DNA of 64,000 nt, from sequence record OZ346212.1; one strand, written 5' to 3'. A model generated the notes under the pieces. That model made no database searches and was not told the DNA's origin. It saw only the letters and a program-made list of their open reading frames with translations. This DNA is from a phage. A program made the translations under genes and the position numbers. Shown here in pieces: positions 8,311 through 53,259 of this stretch (within the stretch, counting starts at the first letter, position 1; each line of letters starts with the position of its first letter).

Positions 8311-11300
8311 ATGCTTCCAATCCCTTTGCTAAAACTTGGTCGTCATTTCCTCGATAAGAGGGGTGGAATTAAGGAACTTGCTGTTCTGTCATACCCAATA
8401 GACAACAGTGATGGTACAAGCAACACAGTATCCTATGTAAATAGCTTAGCTATACTTTTTGATGATGGTCAGCTTAATATTACTGGCTATAACAAGTTCG
8501 GAGAGTGCCGCACTGGGGATCGTAGCCCTATAAACTATCCGAGCGAAACAGCCTGGAATGTTGATCATGTGTGGAGAGCAGACCGCGCGTTTGTGATCCG
8601 GACTTTTGATAACCAGTTTTTCTACATCGGCTGCACTGCAGGTCTTATCGGATCCACTGCGGCAGGCGGTAATGATGTTTGCGTAAACGAGTGGACACCA
8701 CTCCCAGAGCAGATTGTTAAAGGATTGCACCTTGACACCCACCCAGAACGCCTTATTGAGGTGATGGGCGGTATTAACAACACTGTCTGGGTTATTGCAG
8801 AGGCAGAAGGTACTGGCATACTTAACCTGTATGGATCTGGTAACAACACCTACGGATCTTTGCATGTAGATAAAAATCAGCATGCAACCCCTGTAAAGAT
8901 TGGTGAGACATCGGAAAATCCTGAAACAGGCCCTTGGAAAAACCCAAGCATCAACTGTGAGGTGCATGACAACTCTGTTATTTTCGGTGGTCCTAGGGGT
9001 TTCTGGATTGCTGGATACGACTTTCTGAGAAATAACAGTAGAAACGACCTTGTTTGGCCTCCTGTGCAGATTACTCGTAACGATTTGAGGGGCATTCCTG
9101 CAGATGAGGAGTGGAAAGGGTTTATGTGTGGTCCTAACGGGGCAGTAATTGCTACACAGAGGATGCATAGACCCGATGACCAGCAGCTTGTTAACGTATT
9201 TTATGGTCAAAACATTTGGGGAGATGATACATGGCGGGAACTGAATATCACCTACACCCATGAGGTAATGATGGCTCGTGGGTACGGCACAAGTGGCATT
9301 TTCTTCAATAATGGCACTAAGCAGTATCGTGGGTTCTCTCGCAACTTATGTAATGATATTGGTGCACAATCTGCAAACAATAGTCCTAGGGCCGATTTTA
9401 TCCACTATCAAGCTCTTGCTACAGCTAAATATGTTGAGCAACGCCTGCCAGTCAGCTGGACAGAGAGTGTTTATTTCCAAGGCATCCACAGAGAAGGTTT
9501 CTTAGGGACCTTTACTGTTGTTAATGGTAAACTTTGGTGGTCAGGTATCCCAAGGGGAAGTTTTACAGGCTCTAATAACCTGTTTGGCGGCAGACTTAAT
9601 AGTCAGGGGTTCACAGAGGTTCCTGAGAATTGGTATAAAAATGTCCCAGTAGACAGTTGGGGCGTTGATGATATTTTCGACGTTAATGGTGTTAGCAGTG
9701 TTAGCAATATCTACATTGGTGACACGGTCAAGATGAAATTGAAGCCTCAGCCAGAGGGAGCTACGTTCATCATTGACAAGATTGAACTGGTGAATGCTGC
9801 AGGTACGGTTGTTACAGATGCAAATTACCAATTCTCCACCAACTGGAACCACGGCGGGGCCAACGAAGTTGTTGTTACCCAGTATAACAGAAATGTTAAC
9901 AGACGTGGCCTGTACTCTGTAAAAATAACCTATCATGACAAGCATGGCACAGGCAGAACTCACACGACAAGGACTTTGAACTGGAACACCATAGTTCCTG
10001 CGTATCCGTCCAACGGCAAGTGGCATACCGTTGGTAGAAACAAGCAGTTCCATGTTAACGATACTGTATACTTTGGGCTGAATGGGACCCAGCCTGCAGT
10101 AGAAGGGGATACATCGTATATGGTCAGACTCCACAGAATGGATGCTGGATCAGTCACTTATGATGTGACCCAAGAGATCTACGATCAAAGACGCGCCACG
10201 TATGACAATATTGTGAAAACACAAGCCTTGTGGGAGTTCAATCCTAATGGCAAGGGTGGTAAAATGTTGCAGGTTAATGAGCAGAACGGAACGTCGTTGA
10301 CTGTTCACGAACACCCAGACCCTTGGCCTGATCCTGGAAAACCTCACCCGGGAGCTCGTACACTGAAAATTGTCAGCCATGATGCAGGATATTTCGGAAT
10401 ACGCTGGGAAGCTACAGTAAGATATGTCGACGGGACAACAAACAACATAGGGATTACACTTGGCGGCACTAGTGAAGATAGCTCGCTGAAAATTGCCTAC
10501 ACGCCCAGAGGTATCTCTATTGATAATATGGATGTTGTTCGCAATGGTTACGGCGATGTGAATGTCAAAGTTACTCTTGGCGAACATCTTGGTGGGGAAA
10601 GGATCATCATGTATGCCTTTGATCATGATCCACGCACCAATGGAACTTATGCAAATCAGGCATGGAGTTACCTGATAAATGCACCTGAGCCGAATACTAA
10701 AGAGTTCTACTATGGCATGAAGCGAGATGTGTGCAAGAAAACAGGAACACATGACTGGATTGCTATCTGCGTTAAAGATGAGCGCACAGCTTGGGATGAG
10801 CCTGTTAACAGATGGTTCATAGGTATTCCTACCAGAAGTGATAAGTATGTCGCAGAATATATTGTATGCATGGGCGGTACCAACCTAAACATGTGTTGGA
10901 ACGAAGATGTAAACAAATACTCTGATTATGACTATATGAGGGATTACTCTTGTAATTTGTGGTTTAACCAAACTACAGGTTACCCTCCAAGACAGGCGAG
11001 AGTAAACCCTGCAATCTTCACAGACACGCAGGTTTTCTTGACAAAACAGGCCAACGAGGTTCAGACCTTCAAGAATAAATACGATCCTAACAAGTGGTTC
11101 TACAACTGTTACGGCGCATTTTTCTGGGGACCTGGTGAGTTACCTGGTGGTGGATCTTGCTTGAATGAGGCAACTTACGCAAGTGACTACATCATGGGGC
11201 AGGTCAAGAAGTATAAGATAATCCCCGGTCCTGAGACTTTGGGCAATGCCGTTGACCCTTATATCATCATGACTGCACTGAGATCAAACATGGATGGGAC

Positions 11301-40331: not shown

Positions 40332-41557
40332 TGAGCGTTATTCAACAATTCGCTAACCCGATGAATCCGCGTGAAACTGTTTTACTGGCTCACGGCATGA
40401 TTAAACGTGTCAGCATCAAGCCTATCAAAGGTGCTGATCCTACAACAGGTATTAAAACCACTGTGTGGCAAGGTAAGAAAATTGAATCCAGCCACACCAT
40501 CTCTTTACTGATTTCTGAACTGGATTCCTCTGATAACCTGCTTCAAGGTGGTGAAGAAGTTTGGATCAGCATGGGTGATAAGCTGCTTAAACCTGGTCAT
40601 CAAGACTCTGTCTCTGTTAAAATTGATGACAAGTGGGAAACCGTAACGCCGGGATGGATCGTAAATATTCCTTTGAAGGCAAACGAGCATAACGGTAAGA
40701 CCTATTACAAAGGCTCACTGGCTAAGATGGTCAAGCTGGGTGCAGGAGAGGCTCCAGCAGCGACTCAGCAGCAAAAACAGCAACAAGGTGCACAATCACA
40801 AGGCCAGAAGCAGAAACCTCAGCAGAATGCCAATCAGGACGTTTTACGCATCTATGGTGATGTGACTCAGATTGTTGGCAACGTGGTTACTGTTAATGAC
40901 CACAAGATTGGCGAAGGTGCTATGGTTGTAACTGATGAGCAGCTTAAAGACCTGGTGGTAGGTGGTCGTGTTGCAGCCATTGTTGACAAAGACACCGGAA
41001 ACATTATCAGTGGTTTCAAGGCCTATCCTCCTAAGGCAGAGAACGGCACTCAAGGCTCTGGTGGCAAGCGTAAATCCTCTTACGACCCTATCGGTGTGGA
41101 AACGGGGCATAGCATCAATGCGTTGCAGATCATCCTGGATCGCGGGTTTAAGGTAGACGACCCACTGGGCGTGGCTAAAACACTGCACGTAGTCACCATT
41201 GAGCTTAAGAAAGAGTATGCTCAAGCCACCAACCGAGCTGAAGATGAAGTAGGTGCCAGTGTCGGTAATGCGGTGTTGAACGCTTGTCGCCGTATTGACA
41301 AGAAAACGAAAGTTGATGATTTTGCAGTGGCAATTACTGCAGAAGCAAAAGATGTCTTGACTAATCTAGCTGAGCCGTTGTACGATTGGATCAAGAACGG
41401 TGCTGAGTCCACTGACCATCAAGAACCTCAGGCTGCCAAACAGGAAGCAGCTCCACAGCAAAACACTGTAGACGCTCCTCCTGTAAATGATGCGGAAGAT
41501 GACCCAATGGATCAGAATCCAGCACAGTACGTCTTTGATGATGACATCCCATTTTAA
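40331..41557 (+). CDS. ssb: single-stranded DNA-binding protein with host-like acidic C-terminal tip (408 aa)
   Basis: C-terminus ...VFDDDIPF ends in the hexapeptide DDDIPF of E. coli SSB; Gln/Gly-rich linker precedes it; located in replication module. Confidence 0.65.
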   Translation: MSVIQQFANPMNPRETVLLAHGMIKRVSIKPIKGADPTTGIKTTVWQGKKIESSHTISLLISELDSSDNLLQGGEEVWISMGDKLLKPGHQDSVSVKIDDKWETVTPGWIVNIPLKANEHNGKTYYKGSLAKMVKLGAGEAPAATQQQKQQQGAQSQGQKQKPQQNANQDVLRIYGDVTQIVGNVVTVNDHKIGEGAMVVTDEQLKDLVVGGRVAAIVDKDTGNIISGFKAYPPKAENGTQGSGGKRKSSYDPIGVETGHSINALQIILDRGFKVDDPLGVAKTLHVVTIELKKEYAQATNRAEDEVGASVGNAVLNACRRIDKKTKVDDFAVAITAEAKDVLTNLAEPLYDWIKNGAESTDHQEPQAAKQEAAPQQNTVDAPPVNDAEDDPMDQNPAQYVFDDDIPF

Positions 41558-45129: not shown

Positions 45130-45600
45130 AGGGGGATTTCTAAAATGGATTTCCTCCTTTTGATATTTCACCGGGCTGGATATTTTAAAATTCTTAGAAA
45201 ATCAGAAAATGGATCGAAAACTAAAATGGATTTTTCAGAGTAGGCGCGACAAGCTGAATAACTCATCCTATCGTTTGCACCATATTCCAGGCCACCATTA
45301 TAGATTTCCCACACATGCTAACCTCTCCCTACTAGAACTTCCTCCACTTACCCTTGACCTTCTATGGTAACAATCTAACCGCTATCTTGAAGTTGCGGTG
45401 CAGCTTTCCAGGTACTCGATCTACTTTTCATTTCAGGGCTTGGATTTTCTGAAAATTTTTCTCGATAAATTTCTCAGTACTCGATCTGTTTTTCGTTTTC
45501 TGAATCGGATTTTCTGGAAATCGTTCCGGCTCTCAACCTGAAATTTTTGGGGACGAAATCGATTTTTCGTTTTCAGAAATGGATTTTTAAAATTTCTATA
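45130..45600. repeat. AT-rich noncoding region with iteron-like short direct repeats
   Basis: AAATGGAT(T/C) x4, GTACTCGATCT x2, GGATTTTCTG x2, TTTCGTTTTC x2; no credible ORF. Confidence 0.6.
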
Positions 45601-45689: not shown

Positions 45690-45960
45690 TCATTTAGAAT
45701 TTTGAATGATAATCATTCTCGTTTGCAGAATAACGGGCAGGCCCGGTGATTGTCTCCCGGCCCCTGTTGCCCCGGCTTGTTATTATAGTATCACACAGGA
45801 CAAAGAAAGCAAGGACTTTTTGCATAAATTTTTAAATGATAATGATAACCGTTCTCATTTTATGCAGCGCCCATCCCCGGTGGTTGTCTCCCCCGTCACC
45901 GGTGCCTGCCGTCCTTTCGATATGTATATTGTGCCACCTGGCGGGGCCGCTGTCAACACT
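45690..45960. repeat. two tandem structured noncoding repeats with Fur-box-like head (ATGATAAT...) and conserved core CCCGGTG(A/G)TTGTCTCCC
   Basis: Copy 1 about 45692..45790, copy 2 about 45838..45960; track ORF 45706..46062 spans them but looks noncoding. Confidence 0.5.
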
Positions 45961-46120
45961 TTTCAAAAAATTTTTCTAACCTGGTGCGCTAACCGTTGCA
46001 ACCTGGCGGGGCCAGCCTGGCAGGACCTAACTGACCAGGTAGGGGAGAATGAAGGCTTGTAAACCTGGTGGGCCTATGCTACAGGATAGGTAACAATTGA
46101 AGAGGAGGTACAAAAATGAT

Positions 46121-46231
46121 ATGATCCCCCTGGAAAATGTAGCTATTAATGACTCTGAGGCTATCGCCCTGGTTGAAAAGGCTATGGCGGGAGCGTTGGA
46201 ACATAAAGAAGAGTACGAAAATGGTGGTTAA
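46121..46231 (+). CDS. hypothetical small protein (36 aa), not in ORF track
   Basis: ATG preceded by strong SD GAGGAGG at 46102; ends in TAA inside motif GGTTAACCTGGCGGGG. Confidence 0.4.
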   Translation: MIPLENVAINDSEAIALVEKAMAGALEHKEEYENGG

Positions 46232-46283
46232 CCTGGCGGGGGCGGCAGGTGGATTCTATCATAAAAATAATTTAAAATAGTAG

Positions 46284-46623: not shown

Positions 46624-46809
46624 ATGAAAACCACTACCTTTAATTTTGATAATGCAGACTTTTCTTTTTCTGATGTCAAGAACTGCCGCCGTGATCGTGG
46701 ATTTTACAAGGCTTATAATCTGGTGGGCCTGGACGATGACAATAATTTGCACGAAGTAGCTGAGATCCAGCTTGACAGATTGGACGGGAAAGTACTAAAA
46801 ACTTATTGA
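46624..46809 (+). CDS. hypothetical small protein (61 aa)
   Basis: SD AAGAGGA upstream. Confidence 0.6.
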   Translation: MKTTTFNFDNADFSFSDVKNCRRDRGFYKAYNLVGLDDDNNLHEVAEIQLDRLDGKVLKTY

Positions 46810-46810
46810 G

Positions 46811-46857
46811 TTTATTTTTAGATGGCCTTGACACCAGGGCCATCAATAAAGTAAACT
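46811..46857 (+). promoter_or_regulatory. promoter-stem-loop cassette, copy 1
   Basis: TTTATTTTTAG-ATGGCC-ttgacaccag-GGCCAT-CAATAAAGTAAAC; -35 TTGACA sits in the hairpin loop, -10-like TAAACT 18 nt downstream. Confidence 0.6.
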
Positions 46858-46889
46858 AACCACAGTTGAGCGGAAAAGGAGGCTTAAAG

Positions 46890-47009
46890 ATGAGCACTAC
46901 ACGCCAGCACACAAAGGTAACCATCATCGTTTGCATCATTGGGTACATCCTGGCGCAAATGTTGATGGGTAGCGCCAACGGTGTCGCAAAATTTTTCTTA
47001 AACTTTTAA
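46890..47009 (+). CDS. hypothetical small hydrophobic peptide (39 aa), not in ORF track
   Basis: ATG with SD AAAGGAGG directly downstream of cassette copy 1. Confidence 0.4.
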   Translation: MSTTRQHTKVTIIVCIIGYILAQMLMGSANGVAKFFLNF

Positions 47010-47037
47010 TTGACAAGCTAACTTAAATCGATATAAT
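47010..47037 (+). promoter_or_regulatory. consensus sigma70 promoter (TTGACA-N16-TATAAT)
   Basis: Hexamers at 47010 and 47032. Confidence 0.7.
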
Positions 47038-47088
47038 AAGCACATAAACGGGAAAACTTCCCAGAACACACAAAAGGAGAAAAACACC

Positions 47089-47430
47089 ATGACTACTATG
47101 ACCGCCTCAGAAAAAGCTATGCAGATCGCTGAACTGAAAAAACAGATCGCAGACCTTGAGAATAAGATCGATAACTTTGAAATCGACGAGGACAAGTACG
47201 ACGAAAACTATGATGAATGGTTAGACGAGATCTACGGCGAAATTATGATCGGAAACATTTCTTTTCTTCCGTCGCGTATCCTCAAGGAGCTAGATCCTAT
47301 CGCTTACCGCTGCGGATTTAGCGACTACATCGACAGCCTGGATATTGAGGACGATGAAGAATACCAGGAATTACAGACAGAGTTAGAAGAAGCAAAAGAA
47401 GAGCTTGCGGAGCTGGAAGAAAACGAGTAA
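47089..47430 (+). CDS. hypothetical acidic coiled-coil protein (113 aa)
   Basis: SD AAAGGAGA; leader hairpin GGGAA-aac-TTCCC at 47050. Confidence 0.65.
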   Translation: MTTMTASEKAMQIAELKKQIADLENKIDNFEIDEDKYDENYDEWLDEIYGEIMIGNISFLPSRILKELDPIAYRCGFSDYIDSLDIEDDEEYQELQTELEEAKEELAELEENE

Positions 47431-47433
47431 GCT

Positions 47434-47478
47434 TATTTTTAGATGGCCTTGACACCAGGGCCATCAATAAAGTAAACT
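47434..47478 (+). promoter_or_regulatory. promoter-stem-loop cassette, copy 2 (identical to copy 1 over 45 nt)
   Basis: TTATTTTTAGATGGCCTTGACACCAGGGCCATCAATAAAGTAAAC. Confidence 0.6.
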
Positions 47479-47519
47479 TTATACTGTTAACACTGAACTA
47501 ATGCATAGGAGTTAAAACC

Positions 47520-47765
47520 ATGGCAGCACTAATCACCAAATATTATGCCCCTACCAACACCAAAAGCGCCCGTATCATGGTAAAAGGCTTCGGACGTAAA
47601 AAGGTGTACACCTGGGATTATGCCTTAGACACGGAAGACAACTACACCAACGCAATGACCGATTTTATTAATGAACTAAATAAGCAGATCTTGACAAGTT
47701 ATAAAGTGACCGATATTGCTTATATAGGTGAAGGCGGGATCTGTTTTGTAGGCATTGTGAAATAG
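47520..47765 (+). CDS. hypothetical small protein (81 aa)
   Basis: RBS context ATAGGAGTTAAAACCATGGC shared with gene 51771. Confidence 0.6.
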   Translation: MAALITKYYAPTNTKSARIMVKGFGRKKVYTWDYALDTEDNYTNAMTDFINELNKQILTSYKVTDIAYIGEGGICFVGIVK

Positions 47766-47815
47766 TTATTTTTTCGGTGGTCCTGGTTGCAGGGCCATCT
47801 ATAAAGATAATTTAT
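47766..47815 (+). promoter_or_regulatory. degenerate copy of the promoter-stem-loop cassette
   Basis: TTATTTTTTCGGTGGTCCTGGTTGCAGGGCCATCTATAAAGATAA aligns with the cassette but -35 and stem are degraded. Confidence 0.35.
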
Positions 47816-47839
47816 TAACACCATGAAAGGAGAAAGTAC

Positions 47840-48193
47840 ATGATCAGCGGGGCAAGTTTTATTATTGGCGCTATTGCTACGGCTTTAATTGTAAATAAGA
47901 TCCAGGATAAAAAGGAAAGAGGAAGTACCGCCCTTGCAGAATATCCATTTTGGGCATTCAACGATAACGAAGATTATATTATAAAGTATAAAAATAAAGA
48001 AGGTGACCAAGTAACACCGCGACCGATCCCGGCTTACAAAATGCAGGAAACACTATACCGCCTGGAGGCGGGTGGCGCAAAAATTGTAGACTTTTGGGGA
48101 TACGACCACACAGATCAGGAAGTTATAAAGCGCCGTATCCGGGCTATTCAGGCCAATATTGAAGTTAGCAAGGGGGGAATATATGAAAATTAA
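47840..48193 (+). CDS. hypothetical protein with N-terminal transmembrane helix (117 aa)
   Basis: SD AAAGGAGA; N-terminus ISGASFIIGAIATALIV. Confidence 0.6.
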   Translation: MISGASFIIGAIATALIVNKIQDKKERGSTALAEYPFWAFNDNEDYIIKYKNKEGDQVTPRPIPAYKMQETLYRLEAGGAKIVDFWGYDHTDQEVIKRRIRAIQANIEVSKGGIYEN

Positions 48194-48380
48194 TTTCGAG
48201 AAAATTGTAAAGCGCCCTCATGATTCCGAAGAGCTGCCAGAACGCCGCCAGCGTAACAATAAACTGAATAAGCCAAAAAGGTTTGGGAAGATCTGGCGTA
48301 ATCATTATGATCGTAAATTGCCCGGCCTACTTTTGGAACGTGAACGACAGGCAGAACGATACCGCCATAAAGACAAATAA
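48183..48380 (+). CDS. hypothetical small basic protein (65 aa)
   Basis: ATG 48183 with SD AAGGGGGG; overlaps end of upstream gene. Confidence 0.5.
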   Translation: MKINFEKIVKRPHDSEELPERRQRNNKLNKPKRFGKIWRNHYDRKLPGLLLERERQAERYRHKDK

Positions 48381-48388
48381 CAACCAAC

Positions 48389-48417
48389 GCCCCGCCATTG
48401 TGCGGGGCTTTTTATTT
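48389..48417 (+). terminator. rho-independent terminator
   Basis: GCCCCGC-cattgt-GCGGGGC followed by TTTTTATTT. Confidence 0.75.
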
Positions 48418-48537
48418 CTATCCTACGAATAGCGCCCCTGGTTGGCCCTGTAAGCGCCAAAAAGGCCCCCACCTATGCAATCGCCCCTTTAACCTGAAAA
48501 CATCGCCCAGGGCCGTTTCATGGCGTTAAAAATATCA

Positions 48538-48565
48538 TTGACATCGTCAACAGGTTAGCTATACT
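48538..48565 (+). promoter_or_regulatory. sigma70-like promoter (TTGACA-N16-TATACT)
   Basis: Hexamers at 48538 and 48560. Confidence 0.6.
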
Positions 48566-48597
48566 AACCACATCAAAGAGAGAAAGGAGTAAACGCC

Positions 48598-48858
48598 ATG
48601 CGTAAATTAAAAAATTTTGATAAAGTTGATGTTATCCTGAATAATTTTTACTACTGCAACAACAAGGCTATTTGGTGGCGTGATAGTTCCACCGATAAAG
48701 TCAGGGCGCGCTTTCTTCAGGGGCACTGGCAAGGCCGCCCAGTGATTAAAATCATGGGGCAATCGGTAGCGTTTAAAAATTGCCGCCGTGTTGATGACGT
48801 TGAGGAGATTTTAAACATTTTGCGCCACAATAATTTAAAAAATAGTGTTGACAAGTAA
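48598..48858 (+). CDS. hypothetical basic protein (86 aa)
   Basis: SD AAAGGAG upstream. Confidence 0.6.
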   Translation: MRKLKNFDKVDVILNNFYYCNNKAIWWRDSSTDKVRARFLQGHWQGRPVIKIMGQSVAFKNCRRVDDVEEILNILRHNNLKNSVDK

Positions 48859-48875
48859 GCCTCAATAAGTATACT
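48848..48875 (+). promoter_or_regulatory. sigma70-like promoter (TTGACA-N16-TATACT) overlapping the 3' end of the upstream gene
   Basis: Hexamers at 48848 and 48870. Confidence 0.55.
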
Positions 48876-48932
48876 TAAACACACAGGCGGGAAAACTTCC
48901 CGCCACTAACAAAGAAAATAGGAGAAAATATC

Positions 48933-49556
48933 ATGACCACCGTTAACATTACCGCAGGTTACAATTTATCTTTCGACGTGCTGACCGACGAACAAAAAGA
49001 AAAAGCCGTTGAAATGGTCCGCGAAAGAGAAGAACACAGCGGGGATAACTTTTTTGCAGAAAGTGTAATTGAATACTATAAAGAATATGTTTTTCCAGAG
49101 TATGGCCTTGAAGATACCGAAGTACATTGGTCAGGCTTTTGGTGCCAGGGTGACGGCGCGTCAATCAGTGCTGAAAACGTGGATTTAGAAAAATTTTTAC
49201 GTAAAGTAAAGGCCCTGACCAAGTTCCGATCAATTCGTCACTTGTTCGGCACAATGCACGATGGCGAGTTATCAGCCAGTGTTGAACGCGACAAGTACAG
49301 CCATTACAGCCATGAAAACACTGTAAGCGGGTACATTGATACCACTTGGCTAGATCTGACCGCCAAACAAGAAAACAAAGTGGAAGACCTGGAAGAACTG
49401 ATCACCGAGACGGTACGGGAGCTATCCCGCAAGGTTTACGTAGACCTGGAGGAGGCCTATCTAGAACAGTTCACCGCAGAAAACCTGATCGGCCTTATCG
49501 AGGCCAATGATTGGCGGTTTGATGTCGATGAATATGGTGAGATGACTTTTTCATAA
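48933..49556 (+). CDS. hypothetical acidic protein (207 aa)
   Basis: SD AGGAGAA; leader hairpin GGCGGGAA-aac-TTCCCGCC at 48886. Confidence 0.65.
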   Translation: MTTVNITAGYNLSFDVLTDEQKEKAVEMVREREEHSGDNFFAESVIEYYKEYVFPEYGLEDTEVHWSGFWCQGDGASISAENVDLEKFLRKVKALTKFRSIRHLFGTMHDGELSASVERDKYSHYSHENTVSGYIDTTWLDLTAKQENKVEDLEELITETVRELSRKVYVDLEEAYLEQFTAENLIGLIEANDWRFDVDEYGEMTFS

Positions 49557-49564
49557 ATAAAGTG

Positions 49565-49592
49565 TTGCAATAACCTAAAAACCTGCTATATT
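49565..49592 (+). promoter_or_regulatory. sigma70-like promoter (TTGCAA-N16-TATATT)
   Basis: Hexamers at 49565 and 49587. Confidence 0.5.
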
Positions 49593-49646
49593 AAAACTCA
49601 AGGGGGCAAGACGTTTGCCCCAACACAAAACAAAGAGGATAACATC

Positions 49647-50027
49647 ATGAAAAACACTACCAAGGCTATTGACACCGTTATGTTTAACCTGGTTACATTC
49701 CGTGAAGATATGAAAGATCTTCCTCGTGAAACAGTGTGCGACCATATCGAAAACTATCGCAAACTAATCAAAGAGTTGCCTTTAAAACGTGATCAATATG
49801 CGGCTAACGCCATGCTTAATGCCATGATCAAAAAGATGATCCAGTGTGATTTAACCCTGGCCTATGATTATGCAGGCGGTCGTTTTGCAGTATACAATCA
49901 GCCCGTGCCCGGTATGAGCACCACCGAAGAATTGCACGCGCTCAATCTAAAACAAGACGTGTGGGATAGTATGCCTCGCGTGGTGGTATGGGTAGAAAGC
50001 GGAAAGATTTACGGCGATAATTTTTAA
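49647..50027 (+). CDS. hypothetical protein (126 aa)
   Basis: SD AAAGAGGA; leader hairpin GGGGCAA-gacgt-TTGCCCC at 49603. Confidence 0.6.
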   Translation: MKNTTKAIDTVMFNLVTFREDMKDLPRETVCDHIENYRKLIKELPLKRDQYAANAMLNAMIKKMIQCDLTLAYDYAGGRFAVYNQPVPGMSTTEELHALNLKQDVWDSMPRVVVWVESGKIYGDNF

Positions 50028-50036
50028 TCAGGTAGC

Positions 50037-50063
50037 AGGCGGCATATTTGCCGCCTTATTGTT
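50037..50063 (+). terminator. terminator-like hairpin with weak U-tract
   Basis: AGGCGGCA-tatt-TGCCGCCT followed by TATTGTT. Confidence 0.5.
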
Positions 50064-50091
50064 AATCAGAACTGTAAAAGAGGTACATAGA

Positions 50092-50463
50092 ATGGAATTT
50101 ATTATTTTGGCTGTATTGGTTGCCTTGTTTAACGCCTGGATCGCTGGCAAGATGGGAAGATCCGCCTTTTTATGGTTTATTATATCTATTTTCCTGGGGG
50201 TGGTTGCAACTATTGTATTGGTTATCCTTGCAATTGTTGACAAGGGGAATAATAGAAAGGGTAAAGTATTTTCAGACCTGTACGACGCTCAAACGTTTGT
50301 CAACGCCTATTATAGTGATCTTCCAGTCTCCCTACGTTGCAGCCTTGCACAACAGGTTTTCGATGAAGCTAAAACCAGAGATCACGCCCATGAGATTTGT
50401 TTAACTGAGGCGGATCGCCTATTTGAGAGGAATAGAAAATATGTGGACCAGCCGTTTAAATAA
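50092..50463 (+). CDS. hypothetical membrane protein (123 aa)
   Basis: ATG 50092 with SD AAAGAGG; two hydrophobic helices near N-terminus. Confidence 0.55.
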   Translation: MEFIILAVLVALFNAWIAGKMGRSAFLWFIISIFLGVVATIVLVILAIVDKGNNRKGKVFSDLYDAQTFVNAYYSDLPVSLRCSLAQQVFDEAKTRDHAHEICLTEADRLFERNRKYVDQPFK

Positions 50464-50573
50464 TGCCACGTTAATTAACCCCTTTAGTAAAGATTTGAAG
50501 CCAGCCGCCTGGCGGGATGGATTCAATAACGAACGCTTTATTTTCAGGCCTGATCTTGAGGAATTTTATAACA

Positions 50574-50699
50574 ATGGATCGAACAACAGCGGAGATAATT
50601 TTTCTTGTGGTGTGTGTCGTGATAGGACTCCTGGGGGCCATTGTAGATCGCGTCACTACTACCAGAAGGAAAGGGGGAGACGATGACAACCAAGGATAA
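50574..50699 (+). CDS. hypothetical small membrane peptide (41 aa)
   Basis: Internal ATG of track ORF 50517..50699; hydrophobic helix IIFLVVCVVIGLLGAIV; start uncertain. Confidence 0.35.
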   Translation: MDRTTAEIIFLVVCVVIGLLGAIVDRVTTTRRKGGDDDNQG

Positions 50700-50802
50700 G
50701 CCCCGCACCGATAAGGTGCGCCGTGTTATGGTATGGCTTGAGATCATCGCCCTTGAAATATTGTTAGGCGTAGGGATGTATTTTATCTCTGTAAGTAACT
50801 GA
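50683..50802 (+). CDS. hypothetical small membrane peptide (39 aa), not in ORF track
   Basis: ATG preceded by AAGGGGGAGA; hydrophobic helix; followed by terminator. Confidence 0.4.
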   Translation: MTTKDKPRTDKVRRVMVWLEIIALEILLGVGMYFISVSN

Positions 50803-50806
50803 TAAC

Positions 50807-50838
50807 GGCCCCCGATCCCTGGGGGGCCTAACTTTTTT
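50807..50838 (+). terminator. rho-independent terminator
   Basis: GGCCCCC-gatccct-GGGGGCC followed by TAACTTTTTT. Confidence 0.7.
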
Positions 50839-50861
50839 CAAAAAATTTTTCTTCCGGGGTG

Positions 50862-50890
50862 TTGCAATCCGGTCCTGAATATGGATAATA
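50862..50890 (+). promoter_or_regulatory. sigma70-like promoter (TTGCAA-N17-ATAATA)
   Basis: Shares AATATGGATAATA with promoter 51679. Confidence 0.5.
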
Positions 50891-50945
50891 ACAATCAACG
50901 GGGAAACATCCCCACCAACACAAAAACCAGAAAGGAGAAACAAAA

Positions 50946-51146
50946 ATGAGCAACAATATCCGCGTTATTAACTTCAAAAAAGAAGAAAAAATTGCCGTGC
51001 TGATTGACGGTCAAGAAATCTTCAAGGGCGACTATGAAGATCATCAAACGGCGATTAGTATCACTCGCGTGATTGGTTACCATAATTTTTACCCCCAAGG
51101 CGCTGAGGCGGCGGTTAAACGAATCAAAGAGATTGTAGGCCTGTAA
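50946..51146 (+). CDS. hypothetical small protein (66 aa)
   Basis: SD AAAGGAGA; leader hairpin GGGGA-aaca-TCCCC at 50900. Confidence 0.6.
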   Translation: MSNNIRVINFKKEEKIAVLIDGQEIFKGDYEDHQTAISITRVIGYHNFYPQGAEAAVKRIKEIVGL

Positions 51147-51148
51147 AA

Positions 51149-51194
51149 TTTATTTTTAGATGGCCTTGACTCTAGGGCCATCAATAAAGTAAAT
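51149..51194 (+). promoter_or_regulatory. promoter-stem-loop cassette, copy 3
   Basis: TTTATTTTTAGATGGCCTTGACTCTAGGGCCATCAATAAAGTAAAT; differs from copies 1-2 at 3 positions. Confidence 0.6.
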
Positions 51195-51239
51195 TTAAAC
51201 CCTGTTAAAATACCACGCAGTTAACAAGGAGTAATGATC

Positions 51240-51539
51240 ATGTTTATCCAGGCTAATAATCTTTATTTCTTTGATGGTCAGATCGTAGATGGTGTGGAAG
51301 TGGAGATCACTGGGTGCCCTGGTGGTCAGGCTATGACTTTTCGGAATAATGCCTTTGATGATTCTCATATCGTTATGAGAATGGAAGTTACAAAGCTGGA
51401 CGACAAGAAAACGCTCATTGACTATTCCGTGAAAGATCATCCAGACTACCACATGATCTATGGTGATTTGTGCATTGTTGACCGTGACAAGGTGGGCGGC
51501 ATTGTGATCGCTATTGTGAACGATGTTTTCTCTGTATAG
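51240..51539 (+). CDS. hypothetical protein (99 aa)
   Basis: ATG 51240 with SD AAGGAG. Confidence 0.55.
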   Translation: MFIQANNLYFFDGQIVDGVEVEITGCPGGQAMTFRNNAFDDSHIVMRMEVTKLDDKKTLIDYSVKDHPDYHMIYGDLCIVDRDKVGGIVIAIVNDVFSV

Positions 51540-51597
51540 TTCCGGCAAATGATGCAAAATAAGGCCCCTAGCAGGGCCTACAGCGATATAATCACAT

Positions 51598-51632
51598 AAA
51601 GGCCATGCAACCGCATGGCCTTTATTATTTTG
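51598..51632 (+). terminator. rho-independent terminator
   Basis: AAAGGCCATGC-aacc-GCATGGCCTTT followed by ATTATTTTGG. Confidence 0.8.
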
Positions 51633-52055: not shown

Positions 52056-52060
52056 ACCTG

Positions 52061-52084
52061 GCGGGGCCGAAAAGGCCCCCGCCT
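52061..52084 (+). terminator. GC-rich hairpin (terminator-like, weak U-tract)
   Basis: GGCGGGGCC-gaaaa-GGCCCCCGCC directly after the stop codon. Confidence 0.45.
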
Positions 52085-52607: not shown

Positions 52608-52698
52608 AATAGTTTGACAACAAACAACCATCTAACAAAGCATAATACATAAGGTGGTAGAATGATCCGCCACCCGGAACAAAGAAGAGGTAAACACC

Positions 52699-52944
52699 AT
52701 GAAAAGCAATAAAGGTTATAACGGTTACAAAAACAAAACTCATTGGAATGTAAGCCTTTGGATTAATAACGATGAGTCATTGTACCGGTTGGCCCAAGGA
52801 TTTATTAACGCTAATGCTAATCGTAATGATGCGGCGCGGGATATGATGCTTTTTCTGGAGCTAACCGGACAAGATAAGACCCCGGACGGCTTCAAGTACA
52901 GCACTACGGCGATCCGTGCCGCGATGGTTGGAATGAAACACTAA
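52699..52944 (+). CDS. hypothetical small protein (81 aa)
   Basis: SD AAGAAGAGG upstream; last + strand gene before convergent intergenic region. Confidence 0.6.
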   Translation: MKSNKGYNGYKNKTHWNVSLWINNDESLYRLAQGFINANANRNDAARDMMLFLELTGQDKTPDGFKYSTTAIRAAMVGMKH

Positions 52945-53259
52945 AAGCACATAGCCGCCAGATCTCAGAATTTACGTACGCTCACCAGTCTATAGCCTGC
53001 TAAGTATTTATTCCAACCATAGAATAACGGAATAGTCAATACCTGCATAAAATAATTATTCGTGTAAACTGCATAACATAAATCGGCTAGGATGTCAACA
53101 TTTTTCGTAAACAGCTCGAAATTATAACGGTGAGTTATAATAAACAGAGAAATCTTTAGTCGTCTAATGTTTACTGTACATTACTATACTGACTGGAATC
53201 ATTAGATGACTAAGAGAAAGATAAGAAATCATTAACAATGCAATTGTTTTATTCGTAAC

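Follow-up and report, generated by a model that had tools for sequence, protein, structure and literature searches.

The question raised by this locus is what kind of element is repeated, in one orientation, between the small early genes at positions 46,811–51,194 of the 64,000-nucleotide (nt) stretch of phage DNA analysed here (record OZ346212.1, hereafter the window). A reading made from the letters alone (the sequence-only reading) had taken it for a cassette in which a short stem-loop carries a sigma-70 −35 hexamer, and had compared it with the mobile promoter-early stem-loop (PeSL) cassettes of T4-type phages. The element is a repeat which folds into one bipartite RNA hairpin, whose sense-strand pairing is under selection, which has no terminator tail, which matches an annotated ribonuclease III (RNase III) site and which bounds recurrent insertions or deletions (indels); RNase III cleavage, promoter activity and a benefit to mRNA stability are what we infer. 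The reading that we prefer, at a probability of roughly 0.55, is that an RNase III-type intercistronic processing and stability hairpin is combined with a sigma-70-like promoter in three of the copies, and that the repeats drive recurrent recombination.

Four copies of one bipartite hairpin

The window is 93–95% identical to rV5-like coliphages of the genus Vequintavirus, and on this identity its phage is taken to be a Vequintavirus, an rV5-like Escherichia coli phage. A pattern search found the 45-mer core of the repeat exactly at 46812–46856 and 47433–47477 and with three mismatches at 51150–51194; the repeat is thus as real as originally described, with the second and third starts (given as 47434 and 51149) one base off, and 100 dinucleotide-preserving shuffles yielded no 45-mer match. 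The degenerate copy placed near 47766 was likewise recovered, by a repeat search, at 47764–47812 with 71% identity. All four copies lie on the + strand between small open reading frames (ORFs) of the same strand, and their position directly after stop codons was borne out, as each starts 0–3 nt past the upstream one. By position, with folding energy (dG, in kcal/mol) and its z-score, the copies are:

46809..46857, + strand: cassette copy 1, bipartite hairpin (dG −25.1, z −6.8); lower stem 46809–46818/46848–46857; internal loop 46819–46820 (UA) and 46845–46847 (AAU); upper stem 46821–46830/46835–46844; tetraloop 46831–46834; sigma-70-like hexamers, −35 at 46828–46833 and −10 at 46852–46857
47430..47478, + strand: cassette copy 2, with the same 45-nt core as copy 1 (dG −21.1, z −4.5); −35 at 47449–47454, −10 at 47473–47478; base of the lower stem frayed (C6/A50 mismatch)
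47764..47812, + strand: copy 4, degenerate paralogue with the same bipartite fold through compensatory and G-U changes (+ strand dG −22.4, z −5.7); −35 lost (CTGGTT), −10 position reading GATAAT
51147..51195, + strand: cassette copy 3 (dG −21.5, z −5.7); −35 TTGACT at 51166–51171, −10 TAAATT at 51190–51195; pair 5–51 A-U (G-C in copies 1 and 2)

Minimum-energy folding of 61-nt windows as RNA gave, for the + strand of all four copies, one bipartite hairpin of 49 nt with 20 bp (10 + 10), at −21 to −25 kcal/mol (z −4.5 to −6.8). In the 10-bp lower stem the T-rich tract pairs with AAAGUAAACU, the supposed −10; above it come an internal loop, UA in its 5′ strand and AAU in its 3′ strand, and a 10-bp upper stem (GAUGGCCUUG/CAGGGCCAUC), which has a U-G pair, includes the TTG of the −35 and is topped by a tetraloop. 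The hairpin of 6–7 bp with the −35 in a 10-nt loop, as it had been drawn from the letters, is only the core of this 20-bp structure: the TTG is paired, the loop has 4 nt and the −10 lies in the lower stem. The minus strand folds worse, and in copy 4 it is not folded (−8.1 kcal/mol, z −0.9) because several of the pairs are G-U on the + strand. When a longer context of 141 nt was folded, copies 1, 3 and 4 retained the bipartite hairpin and copy 2 the upper stem alone. A covariance model of the cassette detected the four known copies in the window (copy 1, 80.9 bits; copy 2, 80.0; copy 4, 70.1; copy 3, 78.7), all within 4.4 kb, and nothing elsewhere.

Selection on sense-strand pairing

The four sites of 17 genomes provided 39 distinct 61-mers, in which 98.8% of the cells form standard pairs on the structure described above, as compared with 35–56% when the partners are slid by 1–3 columns. 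Both sides have changed at four lower-stem pairs (5–51, GC/AU/GU; 6–50, UA/CG; 8–48, UA/AU/GU/GC; 9–47, AU/UA), and four upper-stem pairs vary through G-U intermediates alone; the covariation score is 0.194 versus 0.105 after shuffling, and none of 500 shuffles reached 0.194. These compensatory and G-U substitutions among copies and genomes argue for selection on the pairing of the sense-strand RNA and hence for a sense-strand RNA element.

Copy 4 differs at 14 of the 49 positions and keeps the fold. Between its orthologues, pair 8–48 reads A-U in the window but G-U in rV5 and, in phiWec189, G-C, and pair 6–50 is U-A in the window and C-G in rV5; its ‘−10’ drifts between GATAAT, GATAGT and GACAGT, with the opposite strand changing to match, and the −35 is absent. 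At this copy it is the structure rather than the promoter that is maintained, and since copy 4 retains the hairpin after losing the −35, the hairpin, not the promoter, is the conserved core. In copy 2, 45 of the 49 columns are invariant over the 17 genomes versus 54% of the third codon positions in the flanking genes (P = 7e-9), and variation is confined to the final two bases of the loop and the foot of the lower stem.

The arms of the upper stem are without variation in copies 1–3 of ∼120 genomes, and this, together with a crossover that falls within the cassette (see below), would also fit a signal read in the DNA itself, GATGGCC-N10-GGCCATC being either the operator of a dimeric phage regulator over the −35 or a site-specific recombinase or nuclease target or cruciform that makes the indels. 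However, the stem substitutions are G-U-compatible on the + strand only, leaving the minus strand of copy 4 unfolded; the A-U/U-A and U-A/C-G swaps of the lower stem would be intolerable to a sequence-specific operator; the half-site centres lie 17 bp apart, off the helical phase; and homologous recombination between 46-nt repeats suffices for the indel. A palindromic operator is unlikely given the strand-specific G-U changes and the lower-stem swaps, and a DNA-level role of any of these kinds appears highly improbable.

Absence of a terminator tail

Neither stem is followed by a U-tract on either strand, and the T-tract lies upstream of the hairpin; the sequence after the upper stem is CAAUAAAG and that after the lower stem is AACCACAG, UUAUACUG or UAAACCC. 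A terminator scan of the region returned 22 terminator-like sites, none of which is a cassette copy, and ordinary terminators with T-tails are present in the same region at 48389, 50807 and 51596. The missing U-tract and the upstream T-tract rule out an intrinsic terminator on either strand, and the lack of a U-tract also makes a PeSL-like terminator role unlikely for the cassette.

Likeness to RNase III site R1 of T7 and T3

The T3 record served as the annotated reference, as the T7 records NC_001604 and V01146 showed no RNase III features. The T3 annotations of an ‘RNase III recognition site’ are stem-loops of 40–54 nt; they begin at a stop codon or just past it, and promoters (E. coli B and C, phi1.1, phi1.3) adjoin or overlap them. 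Upon folding, T3 R1 gave a hairpin in which a UA × AAU internal loop separates the lower stem from an upper stem of 9 bp capped by a tetraloop; this is the dot-bracket pattern of the cassette, with identical internal-loop sequences, and T7 R1 folded into the same UA × AAU bipartite pattern. In a scan of 8 kb of T3, both strands included, the sole match to the cassette's covariance model, at 2906–2964 (18.9 bits, E 0.026), was the annotated R1 (2908–2956), and its score exceeds that of every non-cassette match in the window. In 6.6 kb of T7, four of the six model matches (ranks 1, 2, 3 and 6), all of them marginal (E 0.3–9), fell on the R1, R0.3, R1.1 and R1.3 hairpins, where we take the positions of the T7 sites (R0.3, R0.5, R1, R1.1, R1.3) to be those of Dunn & Studier (1983). 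The closest structural match of the cassette is the T7/T3 RNase III site R1, a likeness that the sequence-only reading, with the PeSL as its sole analogy, had not considered.

The geometry of the hairpin is that of two helical turns (10 + 10 bp), with a 2 × 3 internal loop ∼10 bp below the apical tetraloop. All four copies are intercistronic between same-strand ORFs, with no terminator between a copy and the upstream promoter, and in vivo RNase III sites are known to be enriched in intergenic regions within transcripts (PMC6212723). The enzyme of E. coli accommodates ∼22 bp, and an internal loop leads to a single cut that leaves a protective or stabilising 3′ hairpin (PMC3867540). At its apex the upper stem (closing pair, U-A, U-G) matches the canonical distal box, for which UA/UG has been described, together with the inhibition of E. 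coli RNase III by a proximal box with G-C pairs (Pertzev & Nicholson, PMC1540722). We regard the RNase III step as a well-supported inference and not as a demonstration.

The same fold and covariation evidence, and the location right after stop codons, could also be explained by a hairpin that works independently of RNase III, either as a barrier to 3′–5′ exonucleases, like the repetitive extragenic palindromic (REP) sequences, or as the site of a phage or host RNA-binding protein that tunes cistron stability or translation, and possible G-C pairs in the proximal box could disfavour cleavage (PMC1540722). The two-turn bipartite helix, the UA/AAU loop and the UA/UG distal box are, however, more specific than a simple barrier would require and match an annotated RNase III site, and we consider this alternative unlikely.

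A putative promoter in copies 1–3

A promoter scan detected TTGACA-18-TAAACT at 46828–46857 and 47449–47478 (10/12 match to sigma-70) and TTGACT-18-TAAATT at 51166–51195 (9/12), with an UP-like T-tract upstream of the hexamers in copies 1–3. The −35/−10 pair with 18-nt spacing that had been proposed for the cassette thus holds for these three copies but not for copy 4, which has no −35. Tetraloop bases 26–27 (the AC of TTGAC) are nearly invariant and bases 28–29 vary (A/G/T and C/T), a pattern that is not explained by structure alone. Furthermore, TAAACT is the −10 of an ordinary TTGACA-17 promoter in Avunavirus Av-05, a phage from another genus of the subfamily. In the window from 46.2 to 51.3 kb, each intergenic gap of at least 60 nt has either a near-consensus promoter or a cassette; the idea that each small ORF has a promoter of its own is correct only in part, as there are ∼11 promoter-like sites for ∼19 ORFs. 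On these sequence features, the odds that copies 1–3 are active as promoters are about even.

A second class of intergenic element occurs at 47010–47063, 48848–48904, 49565–49621 and 50862–50915 and consists of a near-consensus sigma-70 promoter and, a few bases past its −10, a short GC-rich hairpin in the 5′ untranslated region (5′-UTR), of which CGGGAAAACTTCCCG and GGCGGGAAAACTTCCCGCC (repeat family D13) are examples. The same layout is seen at 9620–9690 of Av-05, and these 5′-UTR hairpins are probably 5′-terminal stabilisers of mRNA.

Distribution and a candidate relative outside the genus

A sensitive BLAST search of 50,697 phage records with the 52-nt element as query found it in 121 records, every one of them Vequintavirus, at 350 places in total, mostly three and sometimes two per genome. 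No curated Rfam model matched at E ≤ 1 on either strand of the window between 44 and 56 kb. The element is unmarked in the text of the rV5 genome paper, in its supplement and in the rV5 GenBank record, the paper listing 33 promoters and 20 terminators. A pattern scan of IMG/VR with the cassette flanks fixed and the stems free returned 118 stretches, nearly all AT-rich chance matches; real contigs were two, with unaltered stems in both. Beyond the genus, homologues of the flanking proteins (81-aa ORF191-like and 207-aa ORF185-like) led to unrelated phages and to no orthologous intergenic region, except in Av-05.

The best match of the covariance model in Av-05, a single and marginal one (17.2 bits, E 0.15), is a 22-bp hairpin at 10341–10395 (dG −24.6, z −6.1) that directly follows the ORF184 homologue's stop codon. 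In its lower stem the sequences (AGUUGUCUUUUAG / AUAAAAGAAACU) resemble those of the cassette, and its upper stem is related but altered, with compensation (AUGCCGUG/CACGGCAU); a U-tract and convincing promoter hexamers are lacking. The hairpin may belong, as a distant member, to the RNA family of the cassette. This one marginal match hints that, of hairpin and promoter, the hairpin is ancestral.

Two observations concern the records themselves. Seventeen GenBank entries MG0656xx named ‘Campylobacter phage’ (host C. jejuni, flagged UNVERIFIED) are ordinary Vequintavirus genomes, with the taxonomy of that genus and 93–100% identity to coliphages in this region; their host label is doubtful. The ‘repeat_region’ annotated in phage isim was considered as a possible cassette and ruled out, as it sits inside ORF192.

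Recurrent loss or gain of a two-gene module

When the window was compared with 16 relatives from 40 to 60 kb, at least nine indel loci were seen in the alignment, one bounded by the cassette and at least eight elsewhere. The former concerns the segment between copies 1 and 2:

46858..47429, + strand: two-gene module, with a 39-aa ORF at 46890–47009 (rV5 ORF193-like), a consensus promoter at 47010–47037 with a 5′-UTR hairpin, and a 113-aa ORF at 47089–47430 (ORF192-like)

The segment between the two copies (ORF193, promoter P192 and ORF192 in rV5) is absent, along with one cassette copy, from ECP32, ECP26, ime, phiWec189 and one IMG/VR contig. These single-cassette genomes join the left flank of copy 1 to the right flank of copy 2, the crossover lying inside the cassette, and the longest sequence common to the boundaries is 46 nt, as opposed to 6–12 nt for the other indels. 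The nearest relative of ime is C12 (flank identity 100% and 99.8%), that of phiWec189 is C2 (99.5% and 99.7%) and that of ECP32 is ECO111 (99.0% on the left flank). As each single-cassette genome is nearest to a different three-copy genome, while they are 87–97% identical to one another, the 621-bp indel has arisen at least three times independently.

The sequence-only reading had proposed to look for gene-content differences at the cassette in related genomes, and one was found, in the form of this ORF193 + ORF192 module exactly bounded by two copies. Its analogy with elements that shuffle small genes fared less well: the bounded indel recurs, but with one cargo, no genome compared carried any other cargo between the copies, and the eight or more remaining indels have microhomologies of only 6–12 nt. 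What is seen is the recurrent loss or gain of one module, not shuffling.

Both the window and C12 have the loop variant ACC in copies 1 and 2, and an IMG/VR contig has it in copies 2 and 3; in PDX, copies 1 and 3 carry the variant CG. Although ime and C12 are near-twins, the one copy that ime has matches neither of those in C12. Rare loop variants common to paralogous copies of one genome, and an ime copy unlike both C12 copies, indicate gene conversion among the copies. Near-identity of copies 1–3 and polymorphisms shared within genomes could in principle also mark the element as a functionless leftover of recent local duplications, kept similar through gene conversion alone, and phage C7 tolerates an 11-nt deletion in copy 3. 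Such a leftover would not, however, account for the old paralogue, copy 4, whose 14 differences in 49 positions leave the fold intact even between orthologues that have changed by compensation, for a conservation far above that of synonymous sites, or for the probable relative with a different upper stem after a stop codon of Av-05; we consider it the least probable of the explanations discussed here.

The cassette-bounded indel also bears on whether the element is a PeSL. The layout of PeSLs consists of a stop codon, an AT-rich tract, a sigma-70 promoter, a stem-loop in any of five positions, a Shine–Dalgarno sequence (SD) and an ATG (PMC2839356, PMC4122927), and a stem-loop over the −35 is a described subclass (Arbiol 2010, PMC2839356). 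They are numerous in hyperplastic regions, their stem-loop terminates, and they flank indels and form mini-circles (PMC2839356; Comeau 2014, PMC4122927). The cassette might likewise be primarily an early sigma-70 promoter: its overlapping stem-loop would end or attenuate transcription from upstream and so insulate each small gene, and its main part in evolution would be to mediate modular shuffling. The proposed resemblance stands for the anatomy, including the −35 overlap (PMC2839356), as copies 1–3 (copy 4 lacking the −35) carry the hexamers, with a promoter match of up to 10/12, and the AT-rich tract after a stop codon, and a stem-loop, here a 20-bp hairpin spanning the whole promoter, lies at the promoter; it stands as well for the plastic early region and, at one locus, for a recurrent indel of 621 bp bounded by the elements. 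It is weakened by the lack of a U-tract, the copies being outside the list of the terminator scan, and it fails for copy number and cargo diversity, since in place of many copies flanking diverse ORFans there are four copies in 4.4 kb (three to four per genome) with the same cargo everywhere and at least eight indels away from the cassettes. Moreover, copy 4 has kept its hairpin by compensatory changes while the −35 was lost and the −10 drifted. A PeSL-type element with a terminating stem-loop therefore seems rather unlikely.

Other sites of gene-content variation lie nearby. The sequence AACCTGG(C/T)GGGGCC occurs at least five times in a non-coding stretch at 45930–46260, and its copies are the breakpoints of two indels of 161–181 bp relative to A135 and phiWec189 (12 nt and 9 nt shared). 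At 52651–52951 most relatives have an extra 2.5–3.1 kb which is missing in the window, at least one breakpoint having the 9-nt microhomology ATAGCCGCC; this is a hot spot of gene content that is not associated with the cassette. At 51532–51552, between a 101-aa ORF and a terminator cluster at 51562–51625, most relatives have a 364-bp segment with a 116-aa ORF (isim_12) that is absent from the window, rV5, D1, A142, Aya and PDX. An insertion of 581–638 bp, annotated as endonuclease VII (ORF213) in rV5, is present at 41552 in rV5, D1, A135, A142 and EI-SP-GF and lacking in the window, a pattern typical of a mobile nuclease gene.

Proposed role of the cassette

In the reading that we prefer, host RNA polymerase would read through from an upstream early promoter, and the 49 nt from the upstream stop codon would fold. 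Host RNase III would then, most likely, cut on the 3′ side of the internal loop, at ∼46845–46847, 47466–47468, 47800–47802 and 51183–51185, which would leave the upstream cistron with a protective 3′ hairpin and free the downstream cistron. The DNA of copies 1–3 would double as a sigma-70-type promoter, in which TTGAC(A/T) and TAAA(C/T)T, spaced by 18 nt, follow the UP-like T-tract, with transcripts that would start just beyond the hairpin. Homologous recombination between copies 1 and 2, which are identical 46-nt direct repeats 621 bp apart, would repeatedly delete or insert the two-gene module, with gene conversion keeping the copies alike.

Several points weigh against this proposal. For the RNase III part, one possible register of the proximal box puts a G-C pair at a position inhibitory to the E. 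coli enzyme (PMC1540722), the model matches in T7 and T3 have marginal E-values (0.026–0.8), the likeness to R1, at only ∼48% sequence identity with the T3 site, may be convergent, and a stable hairpin could protect 3′ ends without a cut by RNase III; in copy 2, the lower stem competes with coding sequence in the longer context. A literature search for transcript ends, cleavage or transcriptomes of Vequintavirus found none. Searches for a table of the T7 sites, and for deletions in T7 between RNase III sites, gave nothing usable either. For the promoter part, copies 1–3 are near-identical recent paralogues, so that their promoter-likeness amounts to one observation; most genomes have TTGACT and not TTGACA, the spacer is 18 nt, and copy 4 is without a −35. 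Finally, in copy 3 of Campylobacter phage C7 (13370–13400, corresponding to 51184–51195 of the window) 11 nt are deleted, so that the lower stem has no 3′ strand and the putative −10 is gone; either the site is dispensable or the UNVERIFIED record is in error.

A more far-reaching version, which we offer tentatively, is that the sequence is doubly coding. As duplex DNA it would be a sigma-70 promoter, whose T-tract and −10 are complementary, and as read-through RNA it would be a processing site for RNase III like R1 of T7 and T3. The two routes would lead to similar monocistronic mRNAs, so that each gene would have a self-contained joint; the family would extend across the Vequintavirinae, as suggested by the Av-05 hairpin, and the identity of the UA/AAU loops would reflect transfer or tight convergence. 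Were this so, one joint per small early gene would serve as 3′ stabiliser, processing site, promoter and recombination homology, and the loop identity would mean either that a signal has passed between unrelated phage families or that both have converged on the specificity of host RNase III.

Phages related to rV5 are widely used in phage-therapy and biocontrol collections. Should the hairpins prove to be RNase III sites, early polycistronic mRNA would be processed in the manner of T7 in a large myovirus lineage too, and the cassette would offer a concrete, testable case of a sequence constrained both as promoter DNA and as structured RNA. The recurrent loss of a precisely bounded module shows that regulatory repeats can recombine in the PeSL manner outside the T4-like phages as well, and the cassette-bounded module is a natural scar-free site for engineering these phages.

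Neighbouring genes and other repeats

The ORFs that flank the four copies, besides those of the module, are:

46624..46809, + strand: 61-aa ORF upstream of copy 1, with its stop codon (46807–46809) at the base of hairpin 1
47520..47765, + strand: 81-aa ORF, rV5 ORF191-like, with copy 2 upstream and copy 4 downstream
47840..48193, + strand: 117-aa ORF, ORF190-like, downstream of copy 4
50946..51146, + strand: 66-aa ORF, ORF179-like, whose stop codon abuts copy 3
51234..51539, + strand: 101-aa ORF, downstream of copy 3

The promoter scan gave no further promoter-like site in the gap between copy 4 and the 117-aa ORF. The 61-aa ORF was found in the window only and is absent in the 16 relatives compared; it is an in-frame fusion of an ORF195-like N-terminus (phrog_7028) with an ORF194-like C-terminus (phrog_13245), made by a deletion of ∼685 bp with its junction at 46762–46768 and a microhomology of 7–8 nt.

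Three tandem copies of a 47–57-nt unit, spaced by 65–74 nt, lie at 45402–45587, where there are no convincing ORFs, and beside them is a long AT-rich hairpin of 16 pairs (45543–45580). This stretch may be the ‘non-coding’ box of the rV5 map and is possibly an origin or another regulatory region. Two further repeat families were noted: AAC(A/T)TTTTCAAAAAATTTTTCT at 45955–45986 and 50830–50861, upstream of TTGCAA-type promoters, and CCTG..GCC.AAAAGGCCCCC.CCT at 48447–48474 and 52057–52084, downstream of terminators.

Comparison with known systems

With the RNase III sites of T7 and T3, R1 in particular, the cassette shares the form of an intercistronic stem-loop (40–54 nt in those phages) of an early operon transcribed by host polymerase, the bipartite build with ∼20 bp and an internal loop ∼10 bp below a small apical loop, the lack of a U-tract, the occurrence of several sequence-related copies per genome, the promoters that abut or overlap, and the stop codon at or just before the site. 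It differs in phage family (Vequintavirinae as against Autographiviridae), in having only ∼48% identity, and in that its hexamers lie inside the hairpin, so that RNA initiated at its promoter would be without the hairpin, whereas the T3 and T7 promoters precede theirs. REP elements and other stabilising hairpins can protect upstream mRNA from 3′ exonucleases and act as recombination substrates. The intercistronic stabilisers and REPs of E. coli resemble the cassette as palindromic repeats after stop codons, with possible protection from 3′ exonucleases and a role as substrates of recombination, but there is no relation in sequence, and the bipartite geometry of the cassette is specific to sites of the RNase III type. 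Intrinsic terminators also place a stable GC-containing hairpin directly downstream of a gene; unlike them, the cassette has no U-tract on either strand and a T-tract upstream.

With PeSLs the cassette has in common that it is a composite with a G-U-paired stem-loop, repeated among small early ORFs of unknown function, and that recombination between neighbouring copies removes or adds the intervening ORFs. PeSLs, however, are numerous and accompany many ORFans, while the cassette is present in three to four copies per genome with one cargo; their conservation covers ∼100 bp including SD and ATG, that of the cassette 49 nt; and their stem-loops have been shown to terminate, whereas the cassette has no terminator tail and the geometry of an RNase III site. 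In addition, the −10 of the cassette pairs with the upstream T-tract, and the phage lineage is a different one. The cassette is best regarded as a PeSL-like composite, with a hairpin that most likely belongs to the RNase III-site class.

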